A DNA stretch of 64,000 nucleotides from Escherichia coli (GTDB taxonomy: Bacteria; Pseudomonadota; Gammaproteobacteria; Enterobacterales; Enterobacteriaceae): NCBI RefSeq assembly GCF_024223415.1, contig NZ_CP100500.1; one strand, given 5' to 3'. The position numbers were made by a program, and so were the translations under genes. Of the stretch, positions 46,122 to 60,000 are shown piece by piece; position 1 is the stretch's first letter; every line of letters starts with the position of its first letter. Under the pieces are notes generated by a model. That model was not told where the DNA came from and did not search any database. It saw nothing but the letters and a program-made list of their open reading frames with translations.

Positions 46122-46147
46122 AATTAACTACACCATTAACTACACCG
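46122..46147. repeat. attL core: 26-bp direct repeat AATTAACTACACCATTAACTACACCG
   Basis: Identical to 61252-61277; internally two tandem ATTAACTACACC 12-mers. About 50 bp beyond each copy are imperfectly similar. Confidence 0.8.
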
Positions 46148-46987
46148 TTCGGCGCACTGTATGAAACAACGTGGAACAAATAGGCACAAGAAATATAAAG
46201 GCGGGTAATTTTAAGGGGGCGTTGCTGTCGATATGGGGATCCACATAACGGGGCTACCTGGCTTTTTTTCCGGTTAAATGTCAATCAGGCTGGTGGGCTT
46301 TACCTGTTCGGTAGGTGTTATGATTATCGTAATACCTTTCCCCCAATGGGGTAAAAGCATCAACCGTAACGAAAGTCGTTATGGTTGCCACCGATACTCC
46401 AAATTTGGGTATCACGAGTAAGCCCCAAAATCTGGGTGTTACTCTTACTACCCAAACTACGGGTAGTTTCCGTAGTTTCATGGTCGAGTTGCAGATCTGC
46501 AACTCCCCCATCAACCACAGGCGAATTTCCGCCTTCGGTCATTCCTTAATCATCTGCGTAATCATAATGATTATTCAGCCAGCTCAATTTTGAGCTTTGC
46601 TTTAAGTTCAGCGAGTTACCGCGCCGACTTCCTCAAATTGAGGTTTCCGAAAATATCAGTGGGTTAGCGATTAAGCAGATGGATAATTAACCTGCGAAAA
46701 TTTCGCAGGTTACATCAGCGACGTAATTCTCGCTGTTCCTGCCCGGAGGTGTCGACGAATTTCGTCGGAACCTAAGCCTGCCGGGAAGTCCGTACGTTAA
46801 ACGTACGGAGTTAATTCGACATCACACACTACGTTGTCAATTTGCAAAGGAGGGGCGGAAATCACCATACCTGCCACCCTGTCATACAGAAAGGGATTAC
46901 GATAATCGTAACAGGATACAACGCCGCCTGTAATCGTAACCAATTGATTTTTATGATGACGCAAATCTGCGTTATCAGTCCTCAAAG
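46148..46987. other. 840-bp non-coding arm of the island, rich in hairpins and short repeats
   Basis: No convincing ORF. Contains palindromes CCAAATTTGG, GTTGCAGATCTGCAAC, AACCTGCGAAAATTTCGCAGGTT, CGACGAATTTCGTCG, CCGTACGTTAAACGTACGG and TTACGATAATCGTAA, plus three ATCGTAA motifs. Confidence 0.4.
46163..46189 (+). repeat. Phased heptamer array 1 (GAAACAA, GGAACAA, GGCACAA at exact 10-bp spacing)
   Basis: Read directly; lies just inside attL. Confidence 0.7.
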
Positions 46988-47278
46988 TTACCGCCGCAAC
47001 CGTTCCGGCTTCTTCCACTGATAAGTGTTTTTCGCGCTCTCCTGATACATCGCCACGCGTCGACGGTATGCCAGCAACTCTAGTACTCTGATTCGTATGT
47101 CGCGCATATCCACGCCGTTAAGCTCAATACCGTCACGGCGCATCACCTCCGCCACAACACGCACATAATTTTCGGCGGTCACGCTGTCCGGCTGCGTGGC
47201 CTGTTCGTCATGCTGCTGGCTGATTCCGGTAACGCGGCGGATTAATCCCAGTAGTTCGGCTTCGCTCATTCTCGTCAT
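46988..47278 (-). CDS. Hypothetical protein (96 aa), last gene of the packaging operon
   Basis: ORF whose start overlaps the terL stop; no recognisable motif. Confidence 0.6.
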   Translation of the reverse strand: MTRMSEAELLGLIRRVTGISQQHDEQATQPDSVTAENYVRVVAEVMRRDGIELNGVDMRDIRIRVLELLAYRRRVAMYQESAKNTYQWKKPERLRR

Positions 47279-48936
47279 ACCCCATCAAACGCCGCAAGCC
47301 GCTCTTTGTGGCTGTCGCTCATATCGAATGCAAATTCCTCATGCTCTGCCTGGAATGTGCCAAACGCCATCAGCGCCGCAACGCTCGGGTCTATCTTGTT
47401 GGATGATTTTTTCTTGTTCGGCTTGATATTGGCGTTCGCGTCACTCTGCATCACAACATTACTCATTGACCAGGCCAGCACCGGATCACCACGATGCACA
47501 ATCACCTTCCGGTTAACAAAAACTTCGAACGATTTCGCCGCCGGACTGAAACGAAGGTATGTTTGCGGGAACGGCTCCACCTCAAATCCTGCGCCCTGTA
47601 GCTGCGTCATCAGGTGCGTGGCGTTCCATGTATCGAAGCCCACCAGCCGGATATTAAAATTTTCCGCGTCCTTCATGATGTCATCCCTGATACGGTCGTA
47701 ATCAATACAGTCGCCTGGCGTTGTGCGTATCCAGCCCGATTTTGCCCACTGGCGATAGATGGCGCGGTTTTTATTGGCGGGATTCTGTAGCTGCTGCTCC
47801 GGCAGATAATGACGGGAAACCAGCATGATGGTTTTACCAACCGGAAAGGCATAACACACGCTTGAAATATCATTTGTTGATGATAAATCCAGCCCCGCAT
47901 AGCACTCCTGCCCGTGTAAATCTTCCTCCGTGAACGTTCCGGCACACTCAGCCCATGCACCGTTACCCATCCACGGCGTAGCCCCCTGACACCAGATATT
48001 AAAGCGCTTTGTCATCATCTCCACCCACTGCGACGGAATACCCCGCGCTTTCTGGATGGTTGAGGCAAGTTTTTCACGATCGACGGAAACATCGATATTG
48101 GGATTCGCCTTTATCCACATCGCCGGATCGTCAACCTCGCTTTCATCATCCAGCTCGTAAATCATCACGAACATGGATTCATTAACCTCTTCACCATCCA
48201 GTATCTGACAGCAATAATCATAGTGCTGCTTACAGGCAGAAATAACGTTGCTTCCCGATGTGGTAATGGCGAATAACAGCCCGTCAGGACGCGCACCCAT
48301 CCCAAGTTCAAGCGCGGAATATACGCCGTTATCGGGGTGTAAATGGTATTCATCCACAATGGCAAGACTCGGGTTTGTCCCCTCAATGGTCGCCGCCTTT
48401 GCCGCCAGTGGCTTTAACAGGCTGTTGGTTTTCGGGTGTATCACCTTGTGCGCCTGAATATTTACCCGCTTTCGTAACGGTCGGGATAAAAGGCACATCT
48501 GACGCGCATCATCAAACACGATCCGCGCCTGATCACGACTCACGGCGGCGGTGTAAATATCCTGCTGCCCGTTTTCCATAACCAGAAACCAGTTAGCCAG
48601 GATAGCGGCGACCGTGGATTTGGCATTTTTTCGCGGTACTTCAATGAATGCGCTGGTGTATTTGCGCCGTCCGGTGGACTTAACCTTAAAGCCCAGGATG
48701 CACGCAAAGGCGAACTGCTGCCACGGCTCCAGTTCAATGGGGCTACCGCGCATTGCACCTTTTACGTGCGGGCACACCCTGGAAAAGGCAATAAACCGCT
48801 CCACGACCTCCGGATCGAACGTGTAAAGGGGGTTTTCAAGGTCAGAAAAATACCGTTTAACAGCCTGTTTCAGTCGTTTACAGGCCGTAATTTTGCCGTT
48901 TTTTACGCCTTCTGCGTACTCATGCCAGGCGGTCAA
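47275..48936 (-). CDS. Terminase large subunit
   Basis: 553-aa ORF with ATPase N-terminus and nuclease C-terminus typical of Terminase_1 family TerL; overlaps terS. Confidence 0.9.
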   Translation of the reverse strand: MTAWHEYAEGVKNGKITACKRLKQAVKRYFSDLENPLYTFDPEVVERFIAFSRVCPHVKGAMRGSPIELEPWQQFAFACILGFKVKSTGRRKYTSAFIEVPRKNAKSTVAAILANWFLVMENGQQDIYTAAVSRDQARIVFDDARQMCLLSRPLRKRVNIQAHKVIHPKTNSLLKPLAAKAATIEGTNPSLAIVDEYHLHPDNGVYSALELGMGARPDGLLFAITTSGSNVISACKQHYDYCCQILDGEEVNESMFVMIYELDDESEVDDPAMWIKANPNIDVSVDREKLASTIQKARGIPSQWVEMMTKRFNIWCQGATPWMGNGAWAECAGTFTEEDLHGQECYAGLDLSSTNDISSVCYAFPVGKTIMLVSRHYLPEQQLQNPANKNRAIYRQWAKSGWIRTTPGDCIDYDRIRDDIMKDAENFNIRLVGFDTWNATHLMTQLQGAGFEVEPFPQTYLRFSPAAKSFEVFVNRKVIVHRGDPVLAWSMSNVVMQSDANANIKPNKKKSSNKIDPSVAALMAFGTFQAEHEEFAFDMSDSHKERLAAFDGV

Positions 48937-49321
48937 GCTCGTCCTCTTCCTCTGTTTCCGGTGGATTTCTGCGTCGGCTTACCGGGTCAAAACCCAGCAA
49001 AGAAGCCATTTTGATCATTATTCTTTCTGCGTCAGCCTTTGCGCTCAGGGCGGGGTTTCTGCTCTCGCTGCCCTGACTGTTAACAATGCTGAACCCGCGC
49101 GTCGCAAGGTCTTCGACGGCTTTGCGGTATAGGGAGTAGTTAACGCAATACAGCTCAAGATTGCTCCAGTCGGCGGGGGTAAGGTCTTCCCGCCCGGAAA
49201 GCTGGCGCGATTTTTCCTTCCATTGCCTGACGGCAATTTCATCCAGGTAAGCGGGGGCTTTTGGTGGTCTTGCCATGTTCTTTTTTCGCCCAATTATTTT
49301 CAAAAAAATTCCCGTGCACAA
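48920..49321 (-). CDS. Terminase small subunit (P27 family)
   Basis: 133-aa ORF MARPPKAPAYLDEIAVRQWKEKSRQLSGREDLTPADWSNLELYCVNYSLYRKA... resembles P27-family TerS. Confidence 0.8.
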   Translation of the reverse strand: MCTGIFLKIIGRKKNMARPPKAPAYLDEIAVRQWKEKSRQLSGREDLTPADWSNLELYCVNYSLYRKAVEDLATRGFSIVNSQGSESRNPALSAKADAERIMIKMASLLGFDPVSRRRNPPETEEEDELDRLA

Positions 49322-49565
49322 AAATTTGAGCAGGCGGTCGGTTCTGGGCAGGGTCGGGTTCGTCCTGAAAACTCCCCCCCACCCCGTCCGGCTGCCTCAT
49401 CAGCGATTGCGAAAACATTCCATGACCTCGCGGTCACGGTCGGTTAATCGCTTCGCTGTGGTGCGTTTTGTGCGCCCTGTCCTGTTGGCTTTGTGCTCTG
49501 TCTCCTGTGTCTTCCATGTGTCACGCTGCCTTATCAGTCCACGTATCAGCCTGGTTTGCTCCTGT
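49322..49565. other. Predicted cos/packaging-site region between HNH and terS
   Basis: 244-bp GC-rich non-coding gap containing CCCCCCCACCCC (49373-49384). In HK97-type genomes cos lies between the HNH endonuclease gene and terS. Confidence 0.35.
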
Positions 49566-50006
49566 TCAGTCATCATCGCCATACATCCAGTCGTTACGGT
49601 GTGCCGCCCGTTCTTCCTGCTCGCGATACATGCCCGCTTTACGGTTTGCTTTCGTGGCTGGATCTTCCCGTGTGGTCTTACGGTTGTGGCACGTCTGGCA
49701 CAATGCCTGGTGATTCCACTCAGGCCAGAAGAGAACATCATTACCGCCATCGATGGGGATAATGTGATCCACCACCACGGCGGGCGTGTATATTCCTTTT
49801 TCCAGGCAATGCGCACATAACGGGTTTTTACTCAGGTACATAGCGCGGTATTTCTCCCACTGCCTCGTATACCCTCGCTCCCTGCTGCTGCCTCTCCGGC
49901 TGTCCTGCTGCTGGCGTGCGCTGCGTCTGTGCTCCTCACACTTCCCGGACTTCACGCGCCTGTTGCAGCCTGGTTGTGTGCATCGTCTCAATGGTTGCCA
50001 CGGCAT
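49566..50006 (-). CDS. HNH endonuclease (terminase-associated)
   Basis: 146-aa ORF with Cys-rich zinc finger and HNH motif (CAHC...DHIIP...NHQALCQTCHNRK). Confidence 0.85.
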   Translation of the reverse strand: MPWQPLRRCTQPGCNRRVKSGKCEEHRRSARQQQDSRRGSSRERGYTRQWEKYRAMYLSKNPLCAHCLEKGIYTPAVVVDHIIPIDGGNDVLFWPEWNHQALCQTCHNRKTTREDPATKANRKAGMYREQEERAAHRNDWMYGDDD

Positions 50007-50302
50007 CAGTACACCCCCACATCACGATAAACCGACCAGAGCGCGGAAATCGTCAGGGGAATTTCTTTTGTATCGGTATCGCCAAGCGTTGTCCGGTACT
50101 CGTACAGTTGCGAGATGTACATCAGGCAACCAATTTTTATTGCAGGGGTAAATTCCAGGCCGTCATCAAAACGCCTGCCAATATGCTTCTGGCATACCTC
50201 CAGCGCCGCGCTTATGTATGCCTGAATCAGTGTGTCTTCTGTGTTACCATCTATGCGGCAGTGAAGTTTGGCCTCTTCCAGGGTTATTTTTTCTGCTGTC
50301 AT
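50006..50302 (-). CDS. Head-tail connector protein (phage gp6-like)
   Basis: 98-aa ORF MTAEKITLEEAKLHCRIDGNTEDTLIQAYISAALEVCQKHIGRRF... typical of the gp6-like connector family. Confidence 0.7.
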   Translation of the reverse strand: MTAEKITLEEAKLHCRIDGNTEDTLIQAYISAALEVCQKHIGRRFDDGLEFTPAIKIGCLMYISQLYEYRTTLGDTDTKEIPLTISALWSVYRDVGVY

Positions 50303-50637
50303 TTTTCTGTACCCACCTTTGCCAGAATTTCCAGCCGGGTTCTTTTCGCATCAGGTAAGGGGATCCCGATGATATTAAGCGTGCTCCCGGCAAAAGCGCC
50401 GGTAAGCACTTTCAGGCGACTGGCGGCGGATATGTCGCCACGATAGCGAACCCATACCCGAATCGTTGCAGGTGCGGTTTCTGCGCCTGCGGTCAGTAAT
50501 TCCCGTCCGCTGATCCCCTTGACCTCTGCCCAGATGGTTTCCCCTTCCGTCCATATCTGCTGGATCGCACCTGACGGCAGGCGCTGTGTGGTAAATGTCA
50601 TAATCGTCACCCGGTCCCGCATCTTTCCGGCTATCAT
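50299..50637 (-). CDS. Head closure / head-tail adaptor protein
   Basis: 112-aa ORF between portal and gp6-like gene with overlapping start and stop. Confidence 0.65.
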   Translation of the reverse strand: MIAGKMRDRVTIMTFTTQRLPSGAIQQIWTEGETIWAEVKGISGRELLTAGAETAPATIRVWVRYRGDISAASRLKVLTGAFAGSTLNIIGIPLPDAKRTRLEILAKVGTEK

Positions 50638-51851
50638 TCGTCACCGCCCTTACTGTTCTTGCTGATTGTCACTTCCTGCTTCCATGCCTGGCTGAACTCG
50701 TCGCCACCTTCACGCGGCGGCATTCCCTCACGCTCACGGGCTTCGTTCGGATTGATGATCCCGTTCTTAATCCCTTTCTCATACGTGGCGTAACGTTCGG
50801 TAGGGGTGGCGCGTAATAAATCGGCTGAATCAAACTCAACCAGATAACGGGTACCAGGTACGGGAGAAGCCACCAGCAAAGCAGCCTTGATTTGCTGTTC
50901 GAAGTTCGCCAGCCACGGGCGCATTGTCATGGTCAGAAACGCGCGGCTTGCCTCACTGAAATTGCTGTAGGTGCTGTTGCTGTATTCCTGCAAAAAAATC
51001 GGCGAGACGTTGAACATTCGGGCGATGTCTTCAATGGTAAAGCGACGGGAGGCCAGCCATTCAGCATCCTGATTACTCATGCCCAGCTGCTGATAGCTCA
51101 TACCCCCTTCAAGGATGGGCGTTTTTCCGGCGTTTCTGGCCCCTTTGTAGCGTTCCAGTGCGGCTAATGCCTGTTTGCCCTTCACGCCGTCCAGCCATTC
51201 GCCTGACGTGATAACCCCTGCCGCCATCATGCCATCACGCATCACGCTCGCGCCGTGGCGTTGTTGGGCCAGCCCAAGCCCCAGCGATTCGCGGCAGATG
51301 GTTACAGGTGAGCGCCCCATAAAGCCGTCATCCGTGGAGTAACGAAGGTGGAGAACCTCCCACGGTAAATAGTTGCGGGTGTTTCCGGTGTAGGCGTCAG
51401 TGATGCAGTAGCGCCAGTTATGCTCACCTGTCTGCTCCACGTTCACCGACTGCGGCGGGTAAGGATGTAAAGCCACCGGAAAACCATCACGCCCCCACTG
51501 AATAACCGCATAAGCATTACCGTTTAACAGGCAGTGGCGGATCATCATTCGCTTAAACTGGTAGGGGGTTTGCCATGCGTTCGGGCGCTCGTTGAGGATG
51601 TGATCGACCGGATGAGAATCAAGCCACTCGCGGGCCTCCTTCCCCTTCTCATTGCGTACCAGGTACAGGTAACACGGCATGGTAGCCACCGCCTCAGAGA
51701 TGACCGTCACGGCGTTCATGACGGCGGGCAGTGATTCCGCTGTCCCCGATGATACGTACTCACCCGCCCCCGTGTTCGATGTGCCCGCCAGCGCCATAAA
51801 TTCATCAAGCGTCATGCTGCGCTGCTCTTTTTTTCTTCTGAAAAGCCACAT
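50634..51851 (-). CDS. Portal protein (HK97 family)
   Basis: 405-aa ORF; alternative start MTLDEFMALAG at 51815. Confidence 0.85.
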   Translation of the reverse strand: MWLFRRKKEQRSMTLDEFMALAGTSNTGAGEYVSSGTAESLPAVMNAVTVISEAVATMPCYLYLVRNEKGKEAREWLDSHPVDHILNERPNAWQTPYQFKRMMIRHCLLNGNAYAVIQWGRDGFPVALHPYPPQSVNVEQTGEHNWRYCITDAYTGNTRNYLPWEVLHLRYSTDDGFMGRSPVTICRESLGLGLAQQRHGASVMRDGMMAAGVITSGEWLDGVKGKQALAALERYKGARNAGKTPILEGGMSYQQLGMSNQDAEWLASRRFTIEDIARMFNVSPIFLQEYSNSTYSNFSEASRAFLTMTMRPWLANFEQQIKAALLVASPVPGTRYLVEFDSADLLRATPTERYATYEKGIKNGIINPNEAREREGMPPREGGDEFSQAWKQEVTISKNSKGGDE

Positions 51852-51852
51852 A

Positions 51853-52425
51853 TCACACCCCCGCTAAATCCACCCACCAGCGGCGATTATCCGCACGCGG
51901 CATTTTTTCGGGGTGCTGCTCATACAGGGAACGGCGGGCCAGCTCCACGCCGGAATCGGGGTAAGCCGGTACCGATGTAACGGTAATTTCGTACAGTTCC
52001 GCCACCAGCACGGTACGAACGCATGGATCTGTTGTGGTATCCCATACATCCTTACGGGAGCGAAAGCCAAAGCTCATGCCGGATATATCACCGCGTTTAA
52101 CCAGTTCGATAACGTCGCGCCCTGTACTGGTATCCGGTGGGGTCAGTTCAAAGCGTAACCCTGTTTCGTCCTCTTCCAGTTTCAGCGTGCCGGAACGGGT
52201 GCGCCCCAGTAACATGCTGTGGTCATGCTCATACAGGCCGCGAACGTCATTACCCGCCGCAAGCCATTCAGTAAACGCCCCCCGCTGGAATTTTTCGTAA
52301 AACTCACCCCATAACAGTTCTGAAAGCTTATCCCAGCGAACAACGTAGCCCGTCAGCGTACCGGCTCCGCTCGTGGTGATTTCCGATGACCGGATTTCCA
52401 TACTCTTCATAATTTTTTCACCCAT
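51853..52425 (-). CDS. Prohead protease (HK97 family)
   Basis: 190-aa ORF between capsid and portal genes; resembles HK97-type prohead protease. Confidence 0.8.
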   Translation of the reverse strand: MGEKIMKSMEIRSSEITTSGAGTLTGYVVRWDKLSELLWGEFYEKFQRGAFTEWLAAGNDVRGLYEHDHSMLLGRTRSGTLKLEEDETGLRFELTPPDTSTGRDVIELVKRGDISGMSFGFRSRKDVWDTTTDPCVRTVLVAELYEITVTSVPAYPDSGVELARRSLYEQHPEKMPRADNRRWWVDLAGV

Positions 52426-52464
52426 AAAACACTAAAGGGGCTTTTAAGCCCCTTCTGTATGCTG

Positions 52465-53622
52465 TTAATCGTCGTCCTGTGGCAGTTCCAGAATCTTGAT
52501 CGCGTTCGAATCCACCACGCCACCGCCTAAATATTTCTGCGTGAAAATTTTGATGAAGCCCGGCTCTGTGATGTTGTCCGGTCTGGTGCGAACACCTGTT
52601 TCGTGATCAACAATGTAGTAACCGCGTTTGAAGTCACCCAGGGCAATAACGTTATCAGGCATAAACTCCAGATATTCGACCGGAAGGCCCAGCAACGTAT
52701 CAGGATCACCCGCCTGTAAACGGTCGCGCCAGATGTAATCACCGTTCGCGTTCTTCACCTTCTGAAGTTTTGCCGCCGTTGTGGAGTTAACCACCCATAC
52801 CGCGTTCTTGCGGTATTTTTTACGCAATGCAAATTTCAGGTCGATCAGCGGGTCCGCAGATGTCCACGCCAGACCGTGAGCGGGCTTGATAACCTGCAAC
52901 GTTCCGAAGTCGCGTTCTTTGTCGCTCTTCTCTGCACGGGGGACGGATAAAAAGCCTTTTGCTTTTTTGTCACCGTCGCCCACAACCAGATCGCTTTCTT
53001 CGGTTTCCGTGAAGGTGTCGCCAATCTCGGCCGTCAGCCATGAAAGGATGTCCACATCGGAAAAATCCACGATTTCCTGTGTGGTGCGCGGGTACGCATA
53101 GACCGGATACAGCTTAATGCTCACCTCGTTAATCTGCGGGGTGCTGGTCTGTTCGCGTGCCTTACCCTCTTCACCGTGGTTAACGGTCGCACCGCCAGCG
53201 GAAACAAGCTGCTTAAACTCGTTGCTGCTGATTTTCTTCACGGTACAGATGCGGCGCATGGTGGATTCATCCGCCAGCATTCGCATGATTTCGGTGTTCA
53301 GTTCGGGGATAACGGTATAACCACCATCAGCGGGAACGCCTGTACTTAATGCGCGGGTTTCACCTGTCAGAATGTAGTTGCGTAGTTCTGCGGGGTCAGT
53401 GGTCTGACTGCTTTTACCTGGCTTGCTGCGCTCTTCGTCTGCAATGGCTTCAAGGCGGGAAATGTCTTTATCGAGGGATTCAGCTTTAGCGCGTAATTCA
53501 TCAAATTTTGCGCCCTCAGCATCGTTAAGACTGCGGTTTTCTTTTTCCGCGTTCTCCAGCATGTCGCGCATCTGATTTTTAATGGCGGTTTTCTGCTGGC
53601 GTAATTCGATTATTCTCGGCAT
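52465..53622 (-). CDS. Major capsid protein (HK97 fold)
   Basis: 385-aa product from MPRIIELRQQKTAIKNQMRDMLENAEK (ATG at 53622): N-terminal delta/scaffold-like coiled coil then capsid domain. The track ORF extends to a TTG at 53667. Confidence 0.85.
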   Translation of the reverse strand: MPRIIELRQQKTAIKNQMRDMLENAEKENRSLNDAEGAKFDELRAKAESLDKDISRLEAIADEERSKPGKSSQTTDPAELRNYILTGETRALSTGVPADGGYTVIPELNTEIMRMLADESTMRRICTVKKISSNEFKQLVSAGGATVNHGEEGKAREQTSTPQINEVSIKLYPVYAYPRTTQEIVDFSDVDILSWLTAEIGDTFTETEESDLVVGDGDKKAKGFLSVPRAEKSDKERDFGTLQVIKPAHGLAWTSADPLIDLKFALRKKYRKNAVWVVNSTTAAKLQKVKNANGDYIWRDRLQAGDPDTLLGLPVEYLEFMPDNVIALGDFKRGYYIVDHETGVRTRPDNITEPGFIKIFTQKYLGGGVVDSNAIKILELPQDDD

Positions 53623-53836
53623 AAAAAAAAGTCCTGGGGTTAAGTAAGGAACTCCAGGACGCGGCAAAAACTCAACCGTTTTTCATAAGGAAATCAGCAA
53701 TCGCACCGATCGTTTTCCCGCCTGGTAATGAATATTGGCGAGCACATTAACAGGCGGGAAAGTGGCCCCAGCGTCCTGGCACCACGGGCGAGAATAATCA
53801 TGATTCAGTTCGAGTAAAATATGCCGATCCGCTCAG

Positions 53837-53863
53837 TGAACAACCTGGAACAACCACGAACAA
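53837..53863 (+). repeat. Phased heptamer array 2 (TGAACAA, GGAACAA, CGAACAA at exact 10-bp spacing)
   Basis: Read directly; lies in the divergent region between the capsid gene and the moron. Confidence 0.7.
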
Positions 53864-53937
53864 ATAATTTACAAAACCTGAAAAAATAAATAAACTGTTC
53901 CGTACATTTTCTGCTCGTTAATCAGGAGGAACGAACT

Positions 53938-54411
53938 ATGTCAGAAAATGAACTGAAAAAAGCAATGTTCATTCAGCAACGATTGCAGATTCTCCACCTT
54001 GGTAAACACTATGATGAGTTCAGTGATTCTTACGTGTATGCCTGGGAGGCAGATGTTTATCCTTTCTTGCAGGATGGCGACGGAAGTATTCCTGCTCGCC
54101 CACATGAAATTTACGAAGAGTTTTTCGGCACATCTAAAAACAAAGCCAAAAAGATATACGATCGTCTGTGCAAAGCCTGGCACGACCAGGAGGCACTCAC
54201 ATTCTATAAACTAGAAAGTGAATATGGTGTAACAAGTAGCAGCATGCACAGATGGACACGAAGTGATTTACTTCACATCTGCCGCTATCTGTATCTTGAG
54301 GGGTGTTTCGATAAAGATTTCTGGGAAACATTACTGGAAAACGGAAAATGCCCAAGCGAAGCACTTTACCTTAGCGATGAATTTAATCGCGATACAGAGA
54401 TCGACTTCTAA
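53938..54411 (+). CDS. Hypothetical protein (157 aa), moron cargo gene
   Basis: Only + strand gene in the island interior; strong SD (CAGGAGGAACGAACTATG); own hairpin terminator; visibly lower GC than flanking genes; acidic C-terminus; no recognisable motif. Confidence 0.7.
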   Translation: MSENELKKAMFIQQRLQILHLGKHYDEFSDSYVYAWEADVYPFLQDGDGSIPARPHEIYEEFFGTSKNKAKKIYDRLCKAWHDQEALTFYKLESEYGVTSSSMHRWTRSDLLHICRYLYLEGCFDKDFWETLLENGKCPSEALYLSDEFNRDTEIDF

Positions 54412-54416
54412 AAAAA

Positions 54417-54446
54417 TGGCCTGGAAAATACCAGGCCATTATTATT
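54417..54446. terminator. Bidirectional terminator after the moron
   Basis: TGGCCTGG-aaaata-CCAGGCCA hairpin flanked by an A-run and a T-rich tract. Confidence 0.8.
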
Positions 54447-54734
54447 CTACCGTTTCACGGGATCACGCATTCTGCGCCTTATTTTCCACAGATATTCGAT
54501 CATCGCTTCCACCTGCTCACGGTTGGTTGCGAAAATTTCCCCGGTCAGTGAGCTACGCAGAAAATCATGATGATCCACAAAAAATAACGCATCGGAAGAA
54601 AGCAGCCGGAGATATTTTTTTGCTGTCGTGCTTTCCAGATCATCAAAATCATGAAGCTTTTTATGTTGCTGGACTTCTTCAAATGTCACTGGCATGTTTC
54701 CTCCTGCTACCACGATACCAGAAACAGTTAACAA
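54447..54734 (-). CDS. Hypothetical protein (95 aa)
   Basis: ORF at the distal end of the leftward replication operon; no motif recognised. Confidence 0.55.
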   Translation of the reverse strand: MLTVSGIVVAGGNMPVTFEEVQQHKKLHDFDDLESTTAKKYLRLLSSDALFFVDHHDFLRSSLTGEIFATNREQVEAMIEYLWKIRRRMRDPVKR

Positions 54735-54740
54735 CCGTTA

Positions 54741-55022
54741 TCAATTATCCCCTTTTTTAGGGTAGTTCCTGAACATCTCACCGCCAGGCTTCTGTAAGCC
54801 CATCCCGGTATGTGTGCGGTTTATGGCCTCTTTCAGTATTCCGAAATTATCCGGTATGACTGGTGGGCGTGCTGCCTTACGGATACATTCCGCGCGACGC
54901 TTTGCCACTTGTTCGCGCTCCTTGTCAGTGCTCACCAGCCACATAACATCAGCCCATCGCGCGGCCGCCCTCCGGTAAAATCCTTTCGCCTCCAGTTCCT
55001 CCGCTATCCGGTCATGTACCAT
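54741..55022 (-). CDS. Hypothetical protein (93 aa)
   Basis: Start placed at ATG 55022, 10 nt after the ssb stop (the track ORF extends into ssb); MVHDRIAEELEAKGFYRRAAARWADVMWLVSTDKEREQVAKRRAECIRKA... Possible small regulator; unverified. Confidence 0.5.
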   Translation of the reverse strand: MVHDRIAEELEAKGFYRRAAARWADVMWLVSTDKEREQVAKRRAECIRKAARPPVIPDNFGILKEAINRTHTGMGLQKPGGEMFRNYPKKGDN

Positions 55023-55032
55023 CGTCACCCCC

Positions 55033-55443
55033 TCAGAACGGAATATCATCACCGTAAGGGTCATCGCCTCCCGCTGGTGGCTGATTACCCTGTGTGCCTG
55101 TGGTTTTGCGTCTGTTCCCACCAGGACGTGCCGCACGCGCACTGATTACGCTGTCTGCGATAACCTGCCAGCCCTGCCGCGTTTCCCCGTTCTGTCCGGT
55201 CCACTGGCTGACCTGCATCGTGCCGGATACGCTGGCAACGTCGCCTTTTTGATGTTTAGCCAGAAAGTCGGCCTGTTTGCCAAATGCGATGACCGATAAC
55301 CATAACGTCGCCTGTCCGTCCTGTGCCTGGCCGCATGGTAAAGATACCGCCATACGCGCCAGCGTCATCGGTGTACCCTTACTGGTCTGTTTTACCTGCG
55401 GGTCGTCCACCAGCCGCCCGTAAGCTGCAATTTGTGCTGTCAT
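55033..55443 (-). CDS. ssb: Single-stranded DNA-binding protein
   Basis: 136-aa ORF with OB-fold-like core resembling E. coli SSB and the C-terminal acidic tail ...DDPYGDDIPF. Confidence 0.85.
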   Translation of the reverse strand: MTAQIAAYGRLVDDPQVKQTSKGTPMTLARMAVSLPCGQAQDGQATLWLSVIAFGKQADFLAKHQKGDVASVSGTMQVSQWTGQNGETRQGWQVIADSVISARAARPGGNRRKTTGTQGNQPPAGGDDPYGDDIPF

Positions 55444-55452
55444 ATTGCCACC

Positions 55453-55758
55453 TCAGTGAAGCGATCCGGCGTTGTTCTTTTTCATCTCTTCCATCATTTT
55501 TTCAGTGAGCATTACGCACTGAAAACCCATGTTTTTGATGTCTACGGGTTTCATGCCTTTGTCAGTGGATATCACAGGCAGAATATCCTGATACACATCG
55601 CCGCCAGGGTAACTAAGCACACAAAGCGCCCATGATGCCACGGGTGAGGATCCTTGGTCTGTTTCAACCCACCAGCCTGGTGTAGCTGCGCTTATTTGCA
55701 GAATCGTGATCCGTCCGTTGTGCTTGTAAAATTTTTCACCACATTTTGGTTCGCTCAT
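55453..55758 (-). CDS. Hypothetical protein (101 aa)
   Basis: ORF between ssb and the origin. Confidence 0.55.
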   Translation of the reverse strand: MSEPKCGEKFYKHNGRITILQISAATPGWWVETDQGSSPVASWALCVLSYPGGDVYQDILPVISTDKGMKPVDIKNMGFQCVMLTEKMMEEMKKNNAGSLH

Positions 55759-56036
55759 GCTTCCACCTCTCCGGTTTTAACGTTGATGGTTGTCACCTGT
55801 TCCGCTCCGGCAATCTCCCGTTCTGTCAGCGTGGCAAAATTTGCCGCTACCGTTGTCATGAATGCGCTTATCAGTTCGGGATGTGCTTTCGCGTATCCTT
55901 CTCCCGCGTGGCGGTCTATCGTTCTGATTGCCACCTTTAAGGCGTGCTCTGTCATGTCTAACGCTTTATATTTTGGCGCTGTCTTATCTCTGGTTTTTCT
56001 GTTCATTCCCCACCACTCCCCACTTTTGCTCCCCAC
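55755..56036 (-). CDS. Hypothetical protein (about 83-93 aa)
   Basis: ORF immediately downstream of the iteron array; true start probably the internal MNRKTRDK (56006) because the upstream codons lie within the iterons. Confidence 0.45.
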   Translation of the reverse strand: MGSKSGEWWGMNRKTRDKTAPKYKALDMTEHALKVAIRTIDRHAGEGYAKAHPELISAFMTTVAANFATLTEREIAGAEQVTTINVKTGEVEA

Positions 56037-56221
56037 TTTTTAAATTCCCCACTTGCTCCCCACCTCGTTTTTTGAGTGAATCTAATGCTTTGTTTTTCAT
56101 TGCGTTTTTTGCTCCCCACTTTTTTGGATGTATACAGGTGGGAAAGTGGGGAATTATGTTTCAATTTTGTTAAATTCCCCACTCTCCCCACTTTTACTAC
56201 CCACTTTTTACAGTGGGTAAA
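56007..56221. repeat. Iteron array, putative replication origin of the island
   Basis: At least 9 direct copies of (C/T)TCCCCAC(TTTT) at irregular spacing plus 3 inverted copies (AGTGGGGAA, GGTGGGAAA, CAGTGGGTAAA) with A/T-rich spacers, directly 3' of the rep gene. Confidence 0.8.
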
Positions 56222-57614
56222 CATCATCCCCATCGACACAAATCACGCCGTCTTTTTCCAGCTTGTACAGCCAGCGCCGGAAGTGCTTCATCTCATACCC
56301 CAGCTTTTTCATATCGTCGCGGAGAAGGGCGATAGTGCATGGCTCTTTGTGTGCCGTCCGCGTTCTGATGCACTGCCATAGCGCGGCGTGATTCTCCGAT
56401 TTGTTGCCTGCTTCCTCGATGCGCTCCAGTTCAGCAGGGGCGCGGGGAACGTCAATCACCACCATAGACACAATCTCTTCGCCATCTGTATCGGTGAACA
56501 CCTCCACGCTTTTAAGGTCGTATGCACTCTCTTTTGGCTCCTCTGCGTCCTTCATCTTCGTACACGCCGCCACCAGTGCTGTAACGTCTGAATTTTCCCG
56601 GCTGATTCGGTACTCTGCATCAAGCGCGGCACGGAATGCGCTGGAACCACGCGCCCCCTTTGTTTCATCCTTGCCGGAATGGTGAACCACCAGCACCGTG
56701 GCCCCTGTGGCCTGCTTTATCGCGTCACACCCCTGGATAAATGCGCCCATATCACGGGAATCATTTTCATCATTCCCACCAAAGCAACGGGCCAGTGTGT
56801 CGATCACAATCAGCCGCACATTTTCGCCCGTTCTGCTCTTAACAAGTCCGGCAGTCCTGATAACCTGCTCCACATAGTCAGGCGATGCAGGGAAAACAGG
56901 CGCGTTAATGATGCACAAATCTGTAACCACCTTGTCGTGGGTTATCTCCCACGCCTTAACGCGGCGTTTTACGCCCATGCTGCCTTCACCAGCGATATAG
57001 ATAACCGCCCCCTTACTTACCCTGCGGCCTCCCCATGCCATACCTGTGGCAACATGGCACGACCAGGAAATGGCGAGGAACGATTTATAAGAACCGCTGG
57101 CCCCGTAGGTGCTGCATAATGACTCAGCCGGAATAAGCCCCTTAATTACGTAGCTTTGCTGCGCGTCGAATCCCTCAGAACCCCATGAGATGGGAAGCGT
57201 GATTTTTCGCTTTCCGCCATTCATGACCAGGCTTTCCCCTCTCTCCCATGTTTCCCGTAGTCGTGGTAGCTGGTCGCTCCAGTCCTCCAGCAGTTCGAAA
57301 TTTTCAGAAAGTAGCCGCGCCTCCTGGACTCCGGCGATCGCCAGTTTTGTGGCAATGGTCAGCATCTGCATATCGTCCAGGTTTCCGGCGCGTATGACCT
57401 TTGCCCTGTATCGTCCTTCATCAACAATCTGTAAGTTGTCCAGTTCGCTTAACTGATAACGGCCCAGGTAAACCGGAGGGATGGGATCGCCTGCTTTTTT
57501 GGCCTGTGCAATCATGTAATGTTCTGCAAAGGAGTGAGCATTATCACCCGCAAAAATAACCGCCTCAGTGTGTTTATCTTTCGGTAACAGTTTTACGTTC
57601 GGTGCAAGTTTCAT
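56208..57614 (-). CDS. Replication initiator / RepA-like P-loop ATPase (AAA_25-type helicase domain)
   Basis: 468-aa ORF with central P-loop-like segment (YGASGSYKS...LIVIDTLARCF...VLVVHHSGKDETKG), the pattern of RepA/DnaB-like helicases; N-terminal 150 aa unassigned. Confidence 0.7.
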   Translation of the reverse strand: MKLAPNVKLLPKDKHTEAVIFAGDNAHSFAEHYMIAQAKKAGDPIPPVYLGRYQLSELDNLQIVDEGRYRAKVIRAGNLDDMQMLTIATKLAIAGVQEARLLSENFELLEDWSDQLPRLRETWERGESLVMNGGKRKITLPISWGSEGFDAQQSYVIKGLIPAESLCSTYGASGSYKSFLAISWSCHVATGMAWGGRRVSKGAVIYIAGEGSMGVKRRVKAWEITHDKVVTDLCIINAPVFPASPDYVEQVIRTAGLVKSRTGENVRLIVIDTLARCFGGNDENDSRDMGAFIQGCDAIKQATGATVLVVHHSGKDETKGARGSSAFRAALDAEYRISRENSDVTALVAACTKMKDAEEPKESAYDLKSVEVFTDTDGEEIVSMVVIDVPRAPAELERIEEAGNKSENHAALWQCIRTRTAHKEPCTIALLRDDMKKLGYEMKHFRRWLYKLEKDGVICVDGDDVYPL

Positions 57615-57898
57615 TTCTTACCCCCTGCGACCAGCATTTCACGGATTTTGCGGATATAACTTGCAGCACGTTTCTGATTAACGGCTTTACGATGGCCCAC
57701 CAGCGTGAAATCACGCCGGAACTGATAAACAGGCATAACGCAGTCATATTCGTAGCCTTCACGGCGGTAAGTTACGCGACGTTCCTCCACGCTTTTAATT
57801 GTTACCGTGCCGCCGTAGTTATCTTTGAAAATATCGCCGGGGCGGATTTCAGGCCGAGCGGGGCCGCTGGCAGTAAAGCCAGAATATTTAAGTTTCAT
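57611..57898 (-). CDS. Hypothetical protein (95 aa), translationally coupled to rep
   Basis: Stop overlaps the rep start. Confidence 0.55.
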   Translation of the reverse strand: MKLKYSGFTASGPARPEIRPGDIFKDNYGGTVTIKSVEERRVTYRREGYEYDCVMPVYQFRRDFTLVGHRKAVNQKRAASYIRKIREMLVAGGKK

Positions 57899-57903
57899 TA
57901 TTT

Positions 57904-58137
57904 TTATTCTCCGGTGTGCTGTTCTTTATATCTGTCGTGCAATAGGTCTATTTCCTGCAACTCTGTTATTACAGGTTCAAGGAGAGTTATCAGAGATTTA
58001 ATAATCCGCGCATTCTTTACATCACGCTCATTATCGCCAAATGTATCTGGATACATTTGCAATATTTCGTACATACCTTCAGCGTAAGCAATGGCACTAA
58101 ATGCGCGGTCTATTGTTTCGAGGTAAATATCACGCAT
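57904..58137 (-). CDS. Hypothetical protein (77 aa)
   Basis: Tightly packed with flanking small ORFs on the same strand. Confidence 0.5.
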   Translation of the reverse strand: MRDIYLETIDRAFSAIAYAEGMYEILQMYPDTFGDNERDVKNARIIKSLITLLEPVITELQEIDLLHDRYKEQHTGE

Positions 58138-58138
58138 A

Positions 58139-58387
58139 TTAATCCCCGTCCGTCGTTTTTCTTAAAATAACCTCTGTCACGAAATCAGCATAATCGGCGG
58201 CGATATTCAGTACATCAAGCCCCGTTGATTTATATTCTCTCGTGGAAAGTAAGAAAAAAGCCGCTCTAATAAGCTCTGGCATTGACGAAAGCGCATCAGC
58301 CGCATCATCAGGAACGCCGGAAAATTCCTGTTTCAGGGAATTAAAACGATCATCACGCATAACCCCCCCCATTTTCACAATCAGCAA
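58139..58387 (-). CDS. Hypothetical protein (about 73-82 aa)
   Basis: Tightly packed small ORF; start may be the internal Met at 58360. Confidence 0.45.
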   Translation of the reverse strand: MLIVKMGGVMRDDRFNSLKQEFSGVPDDAADALSSMPELIRAAFFLLSTREYKSTGLDVLNIAADYADFVTEVILRKTTDGD

Positions 58388-58634
58388 TCAGGATGGCTTT
58401 GGCCTCATTCAGTGCCATATCAGCGGTAAGCTGTGCGTAGGCCAGCAAATGCGGGATTATTGCCCCTGTATATTCCGTCTCTCTGGTAATGTGTTTTTCT
58501 GCGGTTGCTGCCGTGCATGAAATATCAATCAGCGCGTGCATCAGCGTTTTGATGGCTTCGGCGGCTGCGTCCGGACGGGTGTTATTGCACATGGCACACC
58601 TCCTGACGGATACGGGCGGCGAATACAGCGACAC
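58353..58634 (-). CDS. Hypothetical protein (up to 93 aa), first gene of the leftward early operon
   Basis: ORF immediately downstream of the divergent promoter region; start uncertain. Confidence 0.4.
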   Translation of the reverse strand: MSLYSPPVSVRRCAMCNNTRPDAAAEAIKTLMHALIDISCTAATAEKHITRETEYTGAIIPHLLAYAQLTADMALNEAKAILIADCENGGGYA

Positions 58635-58872
58635 AACCGGACGGGCAACGGTTACGCGCTTCGCGTTCCGTCCAGGCGGTCACGTGGATAATTTGAGATT
58701 CTCCGGCACTCAGTGCCAGAAAACGCCACACAAAGGCGGTTTGTGTGTGCGCTAGTCGTGGGGTATGCTGTGTTCCAGCCATAATCGTTACTCCTGTTAA
58801 CGGTTTGGTTAGACGCCCTGCATGTGTTACAGCACTGCGGGGCGTTGTCTTTTTAACGGCTTTCGTGATAGG

Positions 58873-58914
58873 GTGTACACCTATCAAGCAAAAAAATAAC
58901 GCTATAGGTGTACA
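58873..58914. promoter_or_regulatory. Palindromic operator overlapping the RHH gene start
   Basis: Perfect 12-bp inverted repeat GTGTACACCTAT (58873-58884) and ATAGGTGTACAC (58903-58914), each half containing the self-complementary GTGTACAC; ends 1 bp before the RHH ATG. Confidence 0.7.
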
Positions 58915-58915
58915 C

Positions 58916-59110
58916 ATGTCAACAGTTATTAAGCGAGATAAAAAACCAAAGGGAACAGGAAAAGCCCCCCCATTCCATATGCGAATAGCTCCAGAACTGA
59001 AAGAGCAGTTTGATAATGAGGCCAGCAATGATGGGGTAAGCCTAGCCAACTGGCTTAAAGAGTTGGGACGCAGTGAACTGAAGCGGCGCGGTATAGAACC
59101 CAAAGGTTGA
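58916..59110 (+). CDS. Ribbon-helix-helix (Arc/MetJ-type) DNA-binding protein, candidate island repressor
   Basis: 64-aa product MSTVIKRDKKPKGTGKAPPFHMRIAPELKEQFDNEASNDGVSLANWLKELGRSELKRRGIEPKG fits a beta-strand plus two helices RHH fold; divergent from the early operon. The track ORF 58745..59110 is an upstream extension. Confidence 0.6.
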   Translation: MSTVIKRDKKPKGTGKAPPFHMRIAPELKEQFDNEASNDGVSLANWLKELGRSELKRRGIEPKG

Positions 59111-59267
59111 TAGCCCACCAGCAAGCCAGGACACTGATCACATTGGCCACCGTGACAGGTGGCCTTTTCTTTGCCCGTTATCCGGCAATTGTGGCGCTTC
59201 GCCACACGGTTGATATAATCCCACTGCTCATATTCATTTTTTGCGCAGCAGGTAAATTGTTCAGAAA

Positions 59268-59296
59268 GGCGGCTCCTTATCGGGGCCGCTTTTTTT
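59268..59296 (+). terminator. Rho-independent terminator downstream of the RHH gene
   Basis: GGCGGCTCC-ttatc-GGGGCCGC hairpin (one G-U wobble) followed by TTTTTTT. Confidence 0.7.
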
Positions 59297-59437
59297 ATGC
59301 CTGAAAAACCGCGATTTTGTTGTTTTTCAGTTTCACAAGGCCGAACGAAGCCCCGCCCCTGTTCCGGCGTATATCCAGTCTTCATGGTTAAATCTCTGTA
59401 TTAGTGGATGGGTGGCGGCTGTGTGCCGCCAGTCTTT

Positions 59438-59626
59438 TTAGTGAACTGCCTCGCAGCTTTCCTTCCATGCCAGAACTTCGGATAAAGACCAGCCAACGGA
59501 ACGACCGCCCAGCTTACGCCGTGATGGGAATTGTCCGGCCTTTTCCAGGCGGTAGCGGCATGAGCGGCTAAGCCCTGTTAGCTTTTCGCATTCTTTTTCA
59601 CGTATAAAACGATCAGTGCTTAACAC
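59438..59626 (-). CDS. alpA: AlpA-family transcriptional regulator
   Basis: 62-aa ORF MLSTDRFIREKECEKLTGLSRSCRYRLEKAGQFPSRRKLGGRSVGWSLSEVLAWKE with the AlpA/MerR-like HTH pattern; sits next to the integrase as in P4-like elements and PICIs. Confidence 0.8.
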   Translation of the reverse strand: MLSTDRFIREKECEKLTGLSRSCRYRLEKAGQFPSRRKLGGRSVGWSLSEVLAWKESCEAVH

Positions 59627-59908
59627 TATTGCCCCCTTTCGTTTCTTAAAGAGTTATTTCGTGTTCTATTGCGTTGGTATGTGTCTGATTGTGTCAGGGT
59701 GATTCAGAGTTGGCAAATGTTGATGGCGGGTATTTTACAGAAACGGGGTGATTTTAATAAAAAACATTTTAATTCAGTATTATGCAAAGGCATAAAATCT
59801 CGTTTCATGCCTTTTTTCTCACTATTTAAAGCGTTATTCGCTAATGTATAAAAAACCAGTTGAGCATTAAAAATCAGCAACTTATAAATCTGTATATTTT
59901 TTGGCCTC

Positions 59909-59955
59909 TTGTTCGTGGTTGTTTCACGTTGTTGCGTATTGTTGCACGTTGTATC
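59909..59955 (-). repeat. Phased heptamer array 3 (five copies at exact 10-bp spacing, opposite orientation)
   Basis: Plus strand reads TTGTTCG, TTGTTTC, TTGTTGC, TTGTTGC, TTGTATC, the reverse complements of CGAACAA, GAAACAA, GCAACAA, GCAACAA, GATACAA; lies between the int stop and alpA. Confidence 0.7.
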
Positions 59956-60000
59956 TGTGCACTTATCCAGTATGCGCATACTGAAAAAACACGAAAAAAA

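Follow-up and report, generated by a model that had tools for sequence, protein, structure and literature searches.

In phage-inducible chromosomal islands (PICIs) the region downstream of the replication gene (pri) has been shown experimentally to be an immune hotspot (He et al. 2024, PMC11364771). The Tai genes that it holds are single, small, non-enzymatic and constitutively expressed, they lie in the opposite orientation within the operon, and their products bind a phage structural protein; P2 Tin, a comparable single-gene factor, is also cited there (PMC11364771). Here we describe a gene that occupies the matching position of a capsid-forming PICI (cfPICI) of Escherichia coli. The window, i.e. 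the whole stretch of 64,000 nucleotides of contig NZ_CP100500.1 that was analysed, carries this gene on the plus strand, and we refer to it and to its 157-aa product as ORF157. It is exchangeable cargo of the satellite and consists solely of an acidic all-alpha domain that has no name and is termed X in the following. Our preferred reading, which we hold tentatively and with somewhat less than even confidence, is that ORF157 would be a non-enzymatic protein binder that is made in the resident state and interferes with phages as a single gene. The gene and the elements next to it are:

53938..54411, plus strand: ORF157 coding sequence, 157 aa plus stop, ATG start, taken from the list of open reading frames (ORFs) and the sequence
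53924..53929, plus strand: Shine-Dalgarno sequence AGGAGG, 8 nt 5' of the ATG, read from the sequence
53868..53896, plus strand: candidate σ70 promoter from a consensus scan, -35 TTTACA at 53868-53873, 17-nt spacer, -10 TAAACT at 53891-53896
53879..54411, plus strand: exchangeable cassette, approximate extent, from a four-way DNA alignment in which the homology to satellites with no cargo or another cargo breaks off near 53878 and starts again at the stop codon
53838..53878, no strand assigned: putative backbone control region between cargo and capsid gene, with GAACAA-type repeats at intervals of ~10 nt and, after these, the invariant GAACAAATAATTTACAAAA
54415..54440, no strand assigned: G+C-rich hairpin with a 10-bp stem and a 6-nt loop, terminator-like on both strands (dG -20.3 kcal/mol, z -5.6 versus shuffles)
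54447..54734, minus strand: small ORF convergent with ORF157, phrog_1957 (E 9.6e-34), called with 82 aa by RefSeq
52465..53667, minus strand: gene for the HK97-type major capsid protein, which opens the packaging operon and is divergent from ORF157 (TIGR01554, E 5.6e-88; RefSeq name on a homologous island)

ORF157 is a genuine, strongly constrained gene, as the pairwise dN/dS ratio is ~0.07 (19 homologue pairs), the length of the homologues is steady at 156-158 aa, and the AlphaFold2 (AF2) model is confident (pLDDT 89.8, pTM 0.85). An identical copy is deposited in RefSeq as hypothetical protein WP_112047269.1. A preliminary description of the window had reported a 157-aa plus-strand gene with a strong Shine-Dalgarno sequence, and both the reading frame and the AGGAGG motif at a distance of 8 nt from the ATG were confirmed; purine-rich equivalents of the motif are present in 15 aligned upstream regions. 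In the same type of alignment the -35 element (in ATTTACAAAA) and a TAnnnT sequence ~17 nt downstream are kept in 14 of 15 divergent cfPICI loci from several genera. The repeats at 53838-53878 and GAACAAATAATTTACAAAA are conserved in cfPICIs both with and without cargo, so that we regard this segment as a probable operator or activator site of the capsid operon and not merely as the -35 element of a cargo promoter. An Rfam scan of the ORF157 locus gave no match.

The hairpin downstream of the gene had been described as its own bidirectional terminator. The hairpin is real and terminator-like on both strands, the better T-run (TTTTT) being located on the minus-strand side and the plus-strand side reading ATTATTCTAC, but in the four-way alignment it falls into the right-hand backbone segment common to strain 2D, whose cargo gene differs. 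As judged from this alignment, the hairpin is a backbone element that lies outside the cassette. The lower GC content that had been noted for the gene was likewise borne out in part: ORF157 has 42.0% GC, whereas the capsid gene has 51.3% and the island 50.5%, but the low-GC block extends over ~53.6-54.8 kb and takes in the adjoining phrog_1957 ORF on the minus strand (44.1% GC). We rejected this small ORF as a partner of ORF157, since it is a backbone gene that occurs in satellites without ORF157 (loci L002 and L004) and is missing from Edwardsiella and Raoultella loci with ORF157.

To determine how the gene is distributed we searched 5426 complete E. coli genomes with positions 53800-54500 of the window as query. 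ORF157 is present in eight of them and one or other of its flanks in 455, with the flank-only matches covering query positions 1-87 and 610-701. Most of the related E. coli cfPICIs sampled carry nothing on the plus strand in this slot, i.e. it is empty, and in 51 genomes the place of ORF157 is taken, in the same orientation, by an unrelated 168-aa gene of phrog_5789 as alternative cargo. E. coli copies of ORF157 that are 98-99% identical lie in satellites whose capsid proteins are 74-75% and whose RepA proteins are 36-76% identical to those of the window, and strain GF60 has an identical copy of the cargo region in an island inserted in tqsA instead of beside phoQ. Outside E. coli, homologues with 48-62% identity are located in the same slot in Serratia, Edwardsiella, Salmonella and more than 20 IMG/VR satellites. 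The order capsid gene (minus), X (plus), small ORF (minus), replication gene (minus) recurs in more than 25 satellites from several genera, and in 27 of 27 cfPICI loci the GC content of the homologue is 4-16 points below that of the capsid gene. ORF157 is, in sum, exchangeable cargo in a mid-island slot that follows the replication module and is opposite to the capsid operon. This agrees with the earlier proposal of independently acquired cargo, as the gene forms a discrete cassette with a predicted promoter of its own, deviant GC content and variable presence, the terminator hairpin being the one such feature that belongs to the backbone; the location at the junction of the replication and capsid modules, with the genes for RepA, the single-stranded DNA-binding protein (SSB) and a PerC-family regulator on one side and the capsid gene on the other, was also found as described.

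The alternative cargo protein encoded in strain 2D (2497-3003 of locus L002) and in 50 other genomes has a hydrophobic C-terminal tail. It was rejected as a homologue of ORF157 (BLASTP E 4.7) and has no PADLOC match; we regard its gene as a second candidate conflict gene in the slot. In Edwardsiella piscicida an IS21-family element (IstA/IstB; 5690-7491 of locus L006) splits the portal gene of the cfPICI, with the ORF157 homologue remaining intact.

The slot corresponds to the accessory region downstream of pri for which immunity has been demonstrated in PICIs (PMC11364771), so that the defence- or anti-defence-type position that the preliminary description had ascribed to the gene has a described counterpart. 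Similar to a Tai gene, ORF157 is single and small, has no enzymatic domain match and belongs to the accessory region that follows the replication gene. It is oriented opposite to the surrounding operon, as is phi80 orf63, and its solo promoter suggests, at the level of prediction, that it is expressed in the resident state. Tai, which binds a phage protein, was recognised by neither PADLOC nor DefenseFinder when it was found. Nevertheless, ORF157 was rejected as a Tai homologue. Alignment of a 150-member X profile with TaiEcA/phi80 orf63, the one Tai sequence compared, by hhalign gave a probability of 0.15%, and whereas most Tai homologues reside in phages, a tblastn search with ORF157 returned no match in 50,697 phage genomes, phi80 included. 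In 72,556 plasmids only four matches were obtained. By these searches ORF157 is not a phage gene. The carrier differs, too, as it is a cfPICI that relies on helper tails.

We then asked what kind of protein ORF157 is. It has no match in PHROGs, PADLOC, NCBIfam or Pfam, no PHROG family was found for 11 X members tested, and the core domains of 10 distant members did not match any of these libraries either; faint Pfam matches to Xre-MbcA-ParS_M (E 0.25) and Ham1p (E 0.3) were treated as noise. The initial impression of a protein without recognisable motif is correct as far as the databases go. The protein is nonetheless a member of a large family, as a profile search of 1.84 billion representative proteins yielded 350 clusters, counted at 50% identity, with E ≤1e-3, 236 of them with E ≤1e-10. 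The AF2 model of X is all-alpha and consists of nine helices. Foldseek against AFDB50 identified only ~30 unannotated relatives with TM scores of 0.8-0.9, and because of this the modelled fold is without a described structural neighbour and apparently new. It had been stated beforehand that a confident match to a housekeeping protein or a structural protein of phages would speak against cargo of unassigned function; no such match was obtained in these comparisons.

The acidic C-terminus noted in the preliminary description (net charge -6 over the last 30 residues) is part of a general trait, as the whole protein is acidic (pI 4.93, net charge -11), and so are the X cores across the family, which have a median pI of 5.0 and in 91% of cases a pI below 6. 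Eight residues are near-invariant (A35, P42, F63, E93, L111, Y117, L120 and P139), and these look mostly structural rather than catalytic. No match to a transmembrane or enzymatic domain was found in X proteins. Two further assignments were considered: that as HEPN RNase based on R108-x4-H113, which resembles the Rx4-6H motif, was rejected as the His is not conserved, and a DNA-binding helix-turn-helix (HTH) at residues 88-110, like a winged-helix DNA binder, is unlikely given the net charge of -11.

ORF157 is the bare X domain, whereas 28 of the top 150 clusters, as counted by eye, have an N-terminal extension, which nearly always is a DNA-binding domain. At E ≤0.1 Pfam assigned these extensions to RHH_1 (eight members), PhdYeFM_antitox (three), MazE_antitoxin (two), HTH_43 (two) and Aca2/YdiL (one), Pfam and NCBIfam recognising only part of them; among the fused members tested, the NCBIfam hits to the N-terminal part are of the matching antitoxin type. 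In the one model calculated for a fusion with a ribbon-helix-helix (RHH) domain (pLDDT 89.3) the beta-alpha-alpha motif of the RHH part runs via one long helix into X. Several X members are named 'antitoxin MazE' by JGI.

This architecture is reminiscent of three other groups of proteins. PanA/Panacea (DUF4065; Kurata et al. 2022, PMC8832971) resembles X in being a compact helical domain of ~150 aa for which no homologue has been solved, which often follows a DNA-binding domain at the N-terminus and which is located on mobile elements, and one AFDB relative of ORF157 has been named automatically 'SocA-like Panacea'. We rejected the assignment suggested by this name, since neither ORF157 nor any of the 150 members matches DUF4065 (PF13274), the GPV signature defined for Panacea (PMC8832971) is absent from the X alignment, and there is no adjacent toxin gene as partner. 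Type II antitoxins (RelB/ParD with an RHH fold, Phd/YefM, MazE/AbrB) share their N-terminal folds with relatives of ORF157 and are acidic like X, and some X members are encoded upstream of candidate toxins. ORF157, in contrast, has no DNA-binding domain and no toxin neighbour, X is a large folded domain and not a short disordered tail, and most fused relatives are solitary. Finally, self-regulating inhibitor fusions are known among the anti-CRISPRs (Acr), where an HTH or RHH domain of the anti-CRISPR-associated (Aca) type is built in, e.g. in AcrIIA1. As in these fusions and in P2 Tin, the putative inhibitor domain X occurs solo or fused to a small DNA-binding domain in solitary genes of mobile elements, it is predicted to bind stoichiometrically, and one member matches Aca2/YdiL (E 2.9e-4); there is, however, no homology to either, and X is not found in phage genomes.

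The surroundings of X genes were compared next, also outside cfPICIs. No conserved neighbour or partner gene was detected across more than 40 loci. Three distant members that were used singly as queries retrieved no loci from IMG/VR. Among the solo members, one in Citrobacter (L018) adjoins a gene for a short prokaryotic Argonaute (pAgo) and its Aga-REase partner, a second (L063) adjoins PD-T4-10_B and a Piwi gene, the 80-aa gene upstream of it not being recognisable as an antitoxin, and a third in Raoultella planticola (L008) has a PDC-S31/DUF2971 candidate defence gene directly upstream. Two others are found next to PIN toxins (L062) and, on a 35-kb Pleionea plasmid, next to a RelE/ParE module (L069). 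The Raoultella element is a different type of satellite, with a DUF927 primase, AntA, and tail-fibre and tail-fibre-assembly genes, and is apparently located inside a lambda-like prophage between the portal and S49 protease genes; the Pleionea plasmid has two paralogous X copies, at 6001-6456 and 8170-8637, ~2 kb apart.

Fused members are mostly solitary, as exemplified by chromosomal singletons (L010, L057) and a plasmid copy beside ParA (L058). Three have more telling neighbours. A Phd/YefM-X fusion (2699-4618 of locus L014) is divergent from a type II CBASS operon (patatin, CD-NTase, E1/E2) and lies beside a Tn7-like TniQ gene; the position divergent from a CBASS operon is usually taken by regulators such as CapW or CapH/CapP. 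Downstream of a MazE-X fusion (882-2340 of locus L012), at a distance of 17 bp and in the same orientation, lies a gene whose 283-aa product matches PemK/MazF weakly (E 0.012), and this arrangement may constitute a three-domain toxin-antitoxin (TA) module. In a third locus (L071) a PD-T4-5/AbiD-like abortive infection (Abi) protein is encoded 183 bp downstream of the fused member on the same strand, and DISARM genes are nearby.

Taking these results together, we consider the following scenario. The resident satellite would express ORF157 from the gene's own σ70 promoter, and the protein would act without catalysis, i.e. by stoichiometric binding of another protein. A binder appears preferable to an enzyme since X is acidic, its invariant residues are mostly structural, and there is no transmembrane or enzymatic match. 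The most probable target would be a protein of an incoming, non-helper phage, resulting in single-gene interference or defence like that of Tai in the corresponding slot and of P2 Tin. This is the binding mode, target and phenotype that we infer for ORF157, and interference is ranked first because ORF157 shares with Tai the slot and the solitary, inverted layout and has a conserved σ70 promoter. The defence genes beside X outside cfPICIs (L008, L014, L018, L063 and L071) also speak for this reading. The fused forms, which account for about one fifth of the family clusters, may then be self-repressing or toxin-coupled versions of the same binder. More speculatively, induction of the satellite could silence the inverted ORF157 by antisense read-through. 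For the family as a whole we suggest, at a level of confidence that likewise stays below even, that bacteria and their mobile elements might use X for protein recognition in phage conflict. The domain, which is widespread (at least 350 clusters) and has an apparently new fold, would act solo as a one-gene inhibitor in satellites; fused to RHH, Phd or MazE domains, it would be the part that senses or neutralises in modules that are self-regulating or coupled to a toxin.

Several observations weigh against this scenario. X is fused to precisely the N-terminal domains that type II antitoxins have, and acidity is a classic antitoxin trait, so that a role as neutraliser of a toxin fits these data at least equally well. 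A cfPICI needs helper tails, and any interference would consequently have to leave the helper untouched. Rather than forming a rich hotspot, the slot is mostly vacant in E. coli. No PADLOC-DB 2.0.0 family matches ORF157 at E ≤0.1, none of the homologues found has a known function, and defence genes accompany X in five of ~15 non-cfPICI contexts, a count that covers only some of the neighbours and is not a statistic. As to the antisense step, the T-run of the hairpin on the minus strand speaks against easy read-through.

The alternative that survives best, possible although we deem it rather unlikely, is that ORF157 is an antitoxin-like neutraliser, i.e. an orphan antitoxin or anti-defence protein. 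X would then be a toxin- or effector-binding domain, and the satellite would carry it alone to disarm a toxin or Abi effector of the host or of a rival element that would otherwise be lethal when helper and satellite are induced. The N-terminal fusion partners (RHH, Phd/YefM, MazE/AbrB and winged HTH) are DNA-binding folds of type II antitoxins and X is C-terminal to them, which is the neutralising position of an antitoxin; the RHH-X model, in which the beta-alpha-alpha motif continues into X, the acidity of X and the JGI label are in line with this. So are the two fused members with a candidate toxin downstream on the same strand and the TA-rich surroundings of some copies (L062, L069). However, the MazF match in one of these two cases is weak, there is no conserved partner gene, and ORF157 as well as most fused members stand alone. 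The lack of a match in the 50,697 phage genomes would be unexpected for a general anti-defence gene, and in none of the tests run did X turn out to be Panacea/DUF4065.

We regard it as improbable that ORF157 is cargo unrelated to phage conflict, which would serve host physiology, modulate virulence or confer immunity against a secreted bacterial toxin. The libraries searched assign no function to ORF157, many morons of satellites and prophages have host-directed effects, and among immunity proteins, too, small, acidic, all-alpha orphans are typical. Moreover, the island encodes a PerC-family regulator. On the other hand, neither a signal peptide nor a transmembrane segment nor a toxin-cluster neighbourhood was seen for ORF157, and the repeated defence and TA neighbourhoods together with the antitoxin-type fusions point to intracellular conflict.

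A function in the life cycle of the satellite is very unlikely in our view. ORF157 is divergent from the capsid gene, with which it has a 270-bp control region with conserved repeats in common, and it keeps this position in more than 25 satellites, as might be expected of a regulator, e.g. an anti-activator or anti-repressor, that controls the divergent capsid or packaging operon or decides whether the satellite stays resident or is induced. Yet it is absent from most sampled E. coli satellites with the same control region and is replaceable by an unrelated gene, the family also occurs far from satellites (beside pAgo or CBASS, on plasmids, as chromosomal singletons), and with a net charge of -11 direct DNA binding is unlikely. 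The least probable of the explanations, a growth-inhibitory toxin or Abi effector X that is restrained in cis by the fused antitoxin-type domains and silent in the satellite until infection, would account for the antitoxin-then-toxin order known from type II operons, for the solitary fused members, as expected of self-contained TA proteins, and for the defence-island company of the family, but X is acidic and has no catalytic-looking invariant residues, and a solo gene with a conserved σ70 promoter and no antitoxin partner would be lethal.

The carrier of ORF157 is a cfPICI in the E. coli chromosome, located between the end of phoQ (46041) and the start of roxA/ycfD (61470), which is followed by pepT. 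Its remaining features are:

46122..61326, minus strand: carrier cfPICI, 15.1 kb, between phoQ and roxA/ycfD, delimited by a direct repeat and gene content
60001-61251, minus strand: integrase, NCBIfam integrase matches
59438-59626, minus strand: AlpA, phrog_2790 (E 1.3e-17)
58919-59107, plus strand: Arc-like repressor ORF, 63 aa, phrog_228 (E 7.6e-6) and a weak HicB match
56208-57614, minus strand: RepA-family helicase, named by RefSeq on a homologous island
within the replication module, minus strand: SSB, TIGR00621
54741-55142, minus strand: PerC-family transcriptional regulator, phrog_994 and activator PHROGs, RefSeq name on a homologue

The island is flanked by 75-nt direct repeats (46122-46196 and 61252-61326) that are 79% identical overall and identical in their first 26 nt (AATTAACTACACCATTAACTACACCG), and these are probably attL and attR. 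From the integrase and AlpA genes onwards the minus strand encodes small early proteins, a DUF4222 protein, RepA, SSB, the PerC-family protein, the phrog_1957 ORF and the capsid protein, the latter being followed by a packaging module of prohead protease, portal, head-closure/connector/adaptor proteins, HNH, TerS and TerL. Packaging genes other than that of the capsid were named via RefSeq on the collinear module of locus L001, the ORF sizes in the window matching. No tail or lysis (holin) genes are present among the island ORFs and annotations. cfPICIs are defined by integrase, AlpA and primase-replicase genes, a capsid-packaging set of their own, the lack of tail and lysis genes, a size of ~14 kb and att repeats (de Sousa et al. 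2023, PMC10085698), and the island agrees with this definition in gene content, size and att repeats. It is a capsid-forming PICI.

ORF157 had been called the only plus-strand gene in the interior of the island, which does not hold since the Arc-like ORF is located there as well. This ORF, which may encode a satellite repressor, overlaps a long minus-strand ORF that is probably spurious. As to the PerC-family regulator of the satellite, PerC/Pch homologues regulate the locus of enterocyte effacement (LEE) island in pathogenic E. coli. Just downstream of the RepA gene (55997-56210) TTTTGCTCCCCACTTTTT is found three times at a spacing of 83-85 bp within two longer 46-nt repeats, and this iteron-like region is probably the replication origin of the satellite. 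The leader of the capsid operon (53714-53761) contains a 17-nt inverted repeat that is 94% complementary and has a 14-nt loop; it lies within the part of the left flank that is also present in the aligned cargo-less E. coli satellites.

Satellites and defence islands are main sources of new immune and counter-immune genes, and it was only in 2024 that the mid-island slot of PICIs was shown to hold immune genes. ORF157 is a second, unrelated occupant of this slot, here in a cfPICI, and links it to a large family that is unnamed in the databases, has no structural neighbour and is repeatedly fused to at least three antitoxin DNA-binding folds. We thus consider ORF157 a good candidate for a new phage-conflict gene. 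If X indeed binds a phage protein or a toxin, it would be a new modular recognition element for the toolkit of toxin-antitoxin and defence systems and would account for hundreds of 'hypothetical' genes beside pAgo, CBASS, DISARM and Abi systems, and the X proteins would represent a new family of defence or counter-defence proteins.

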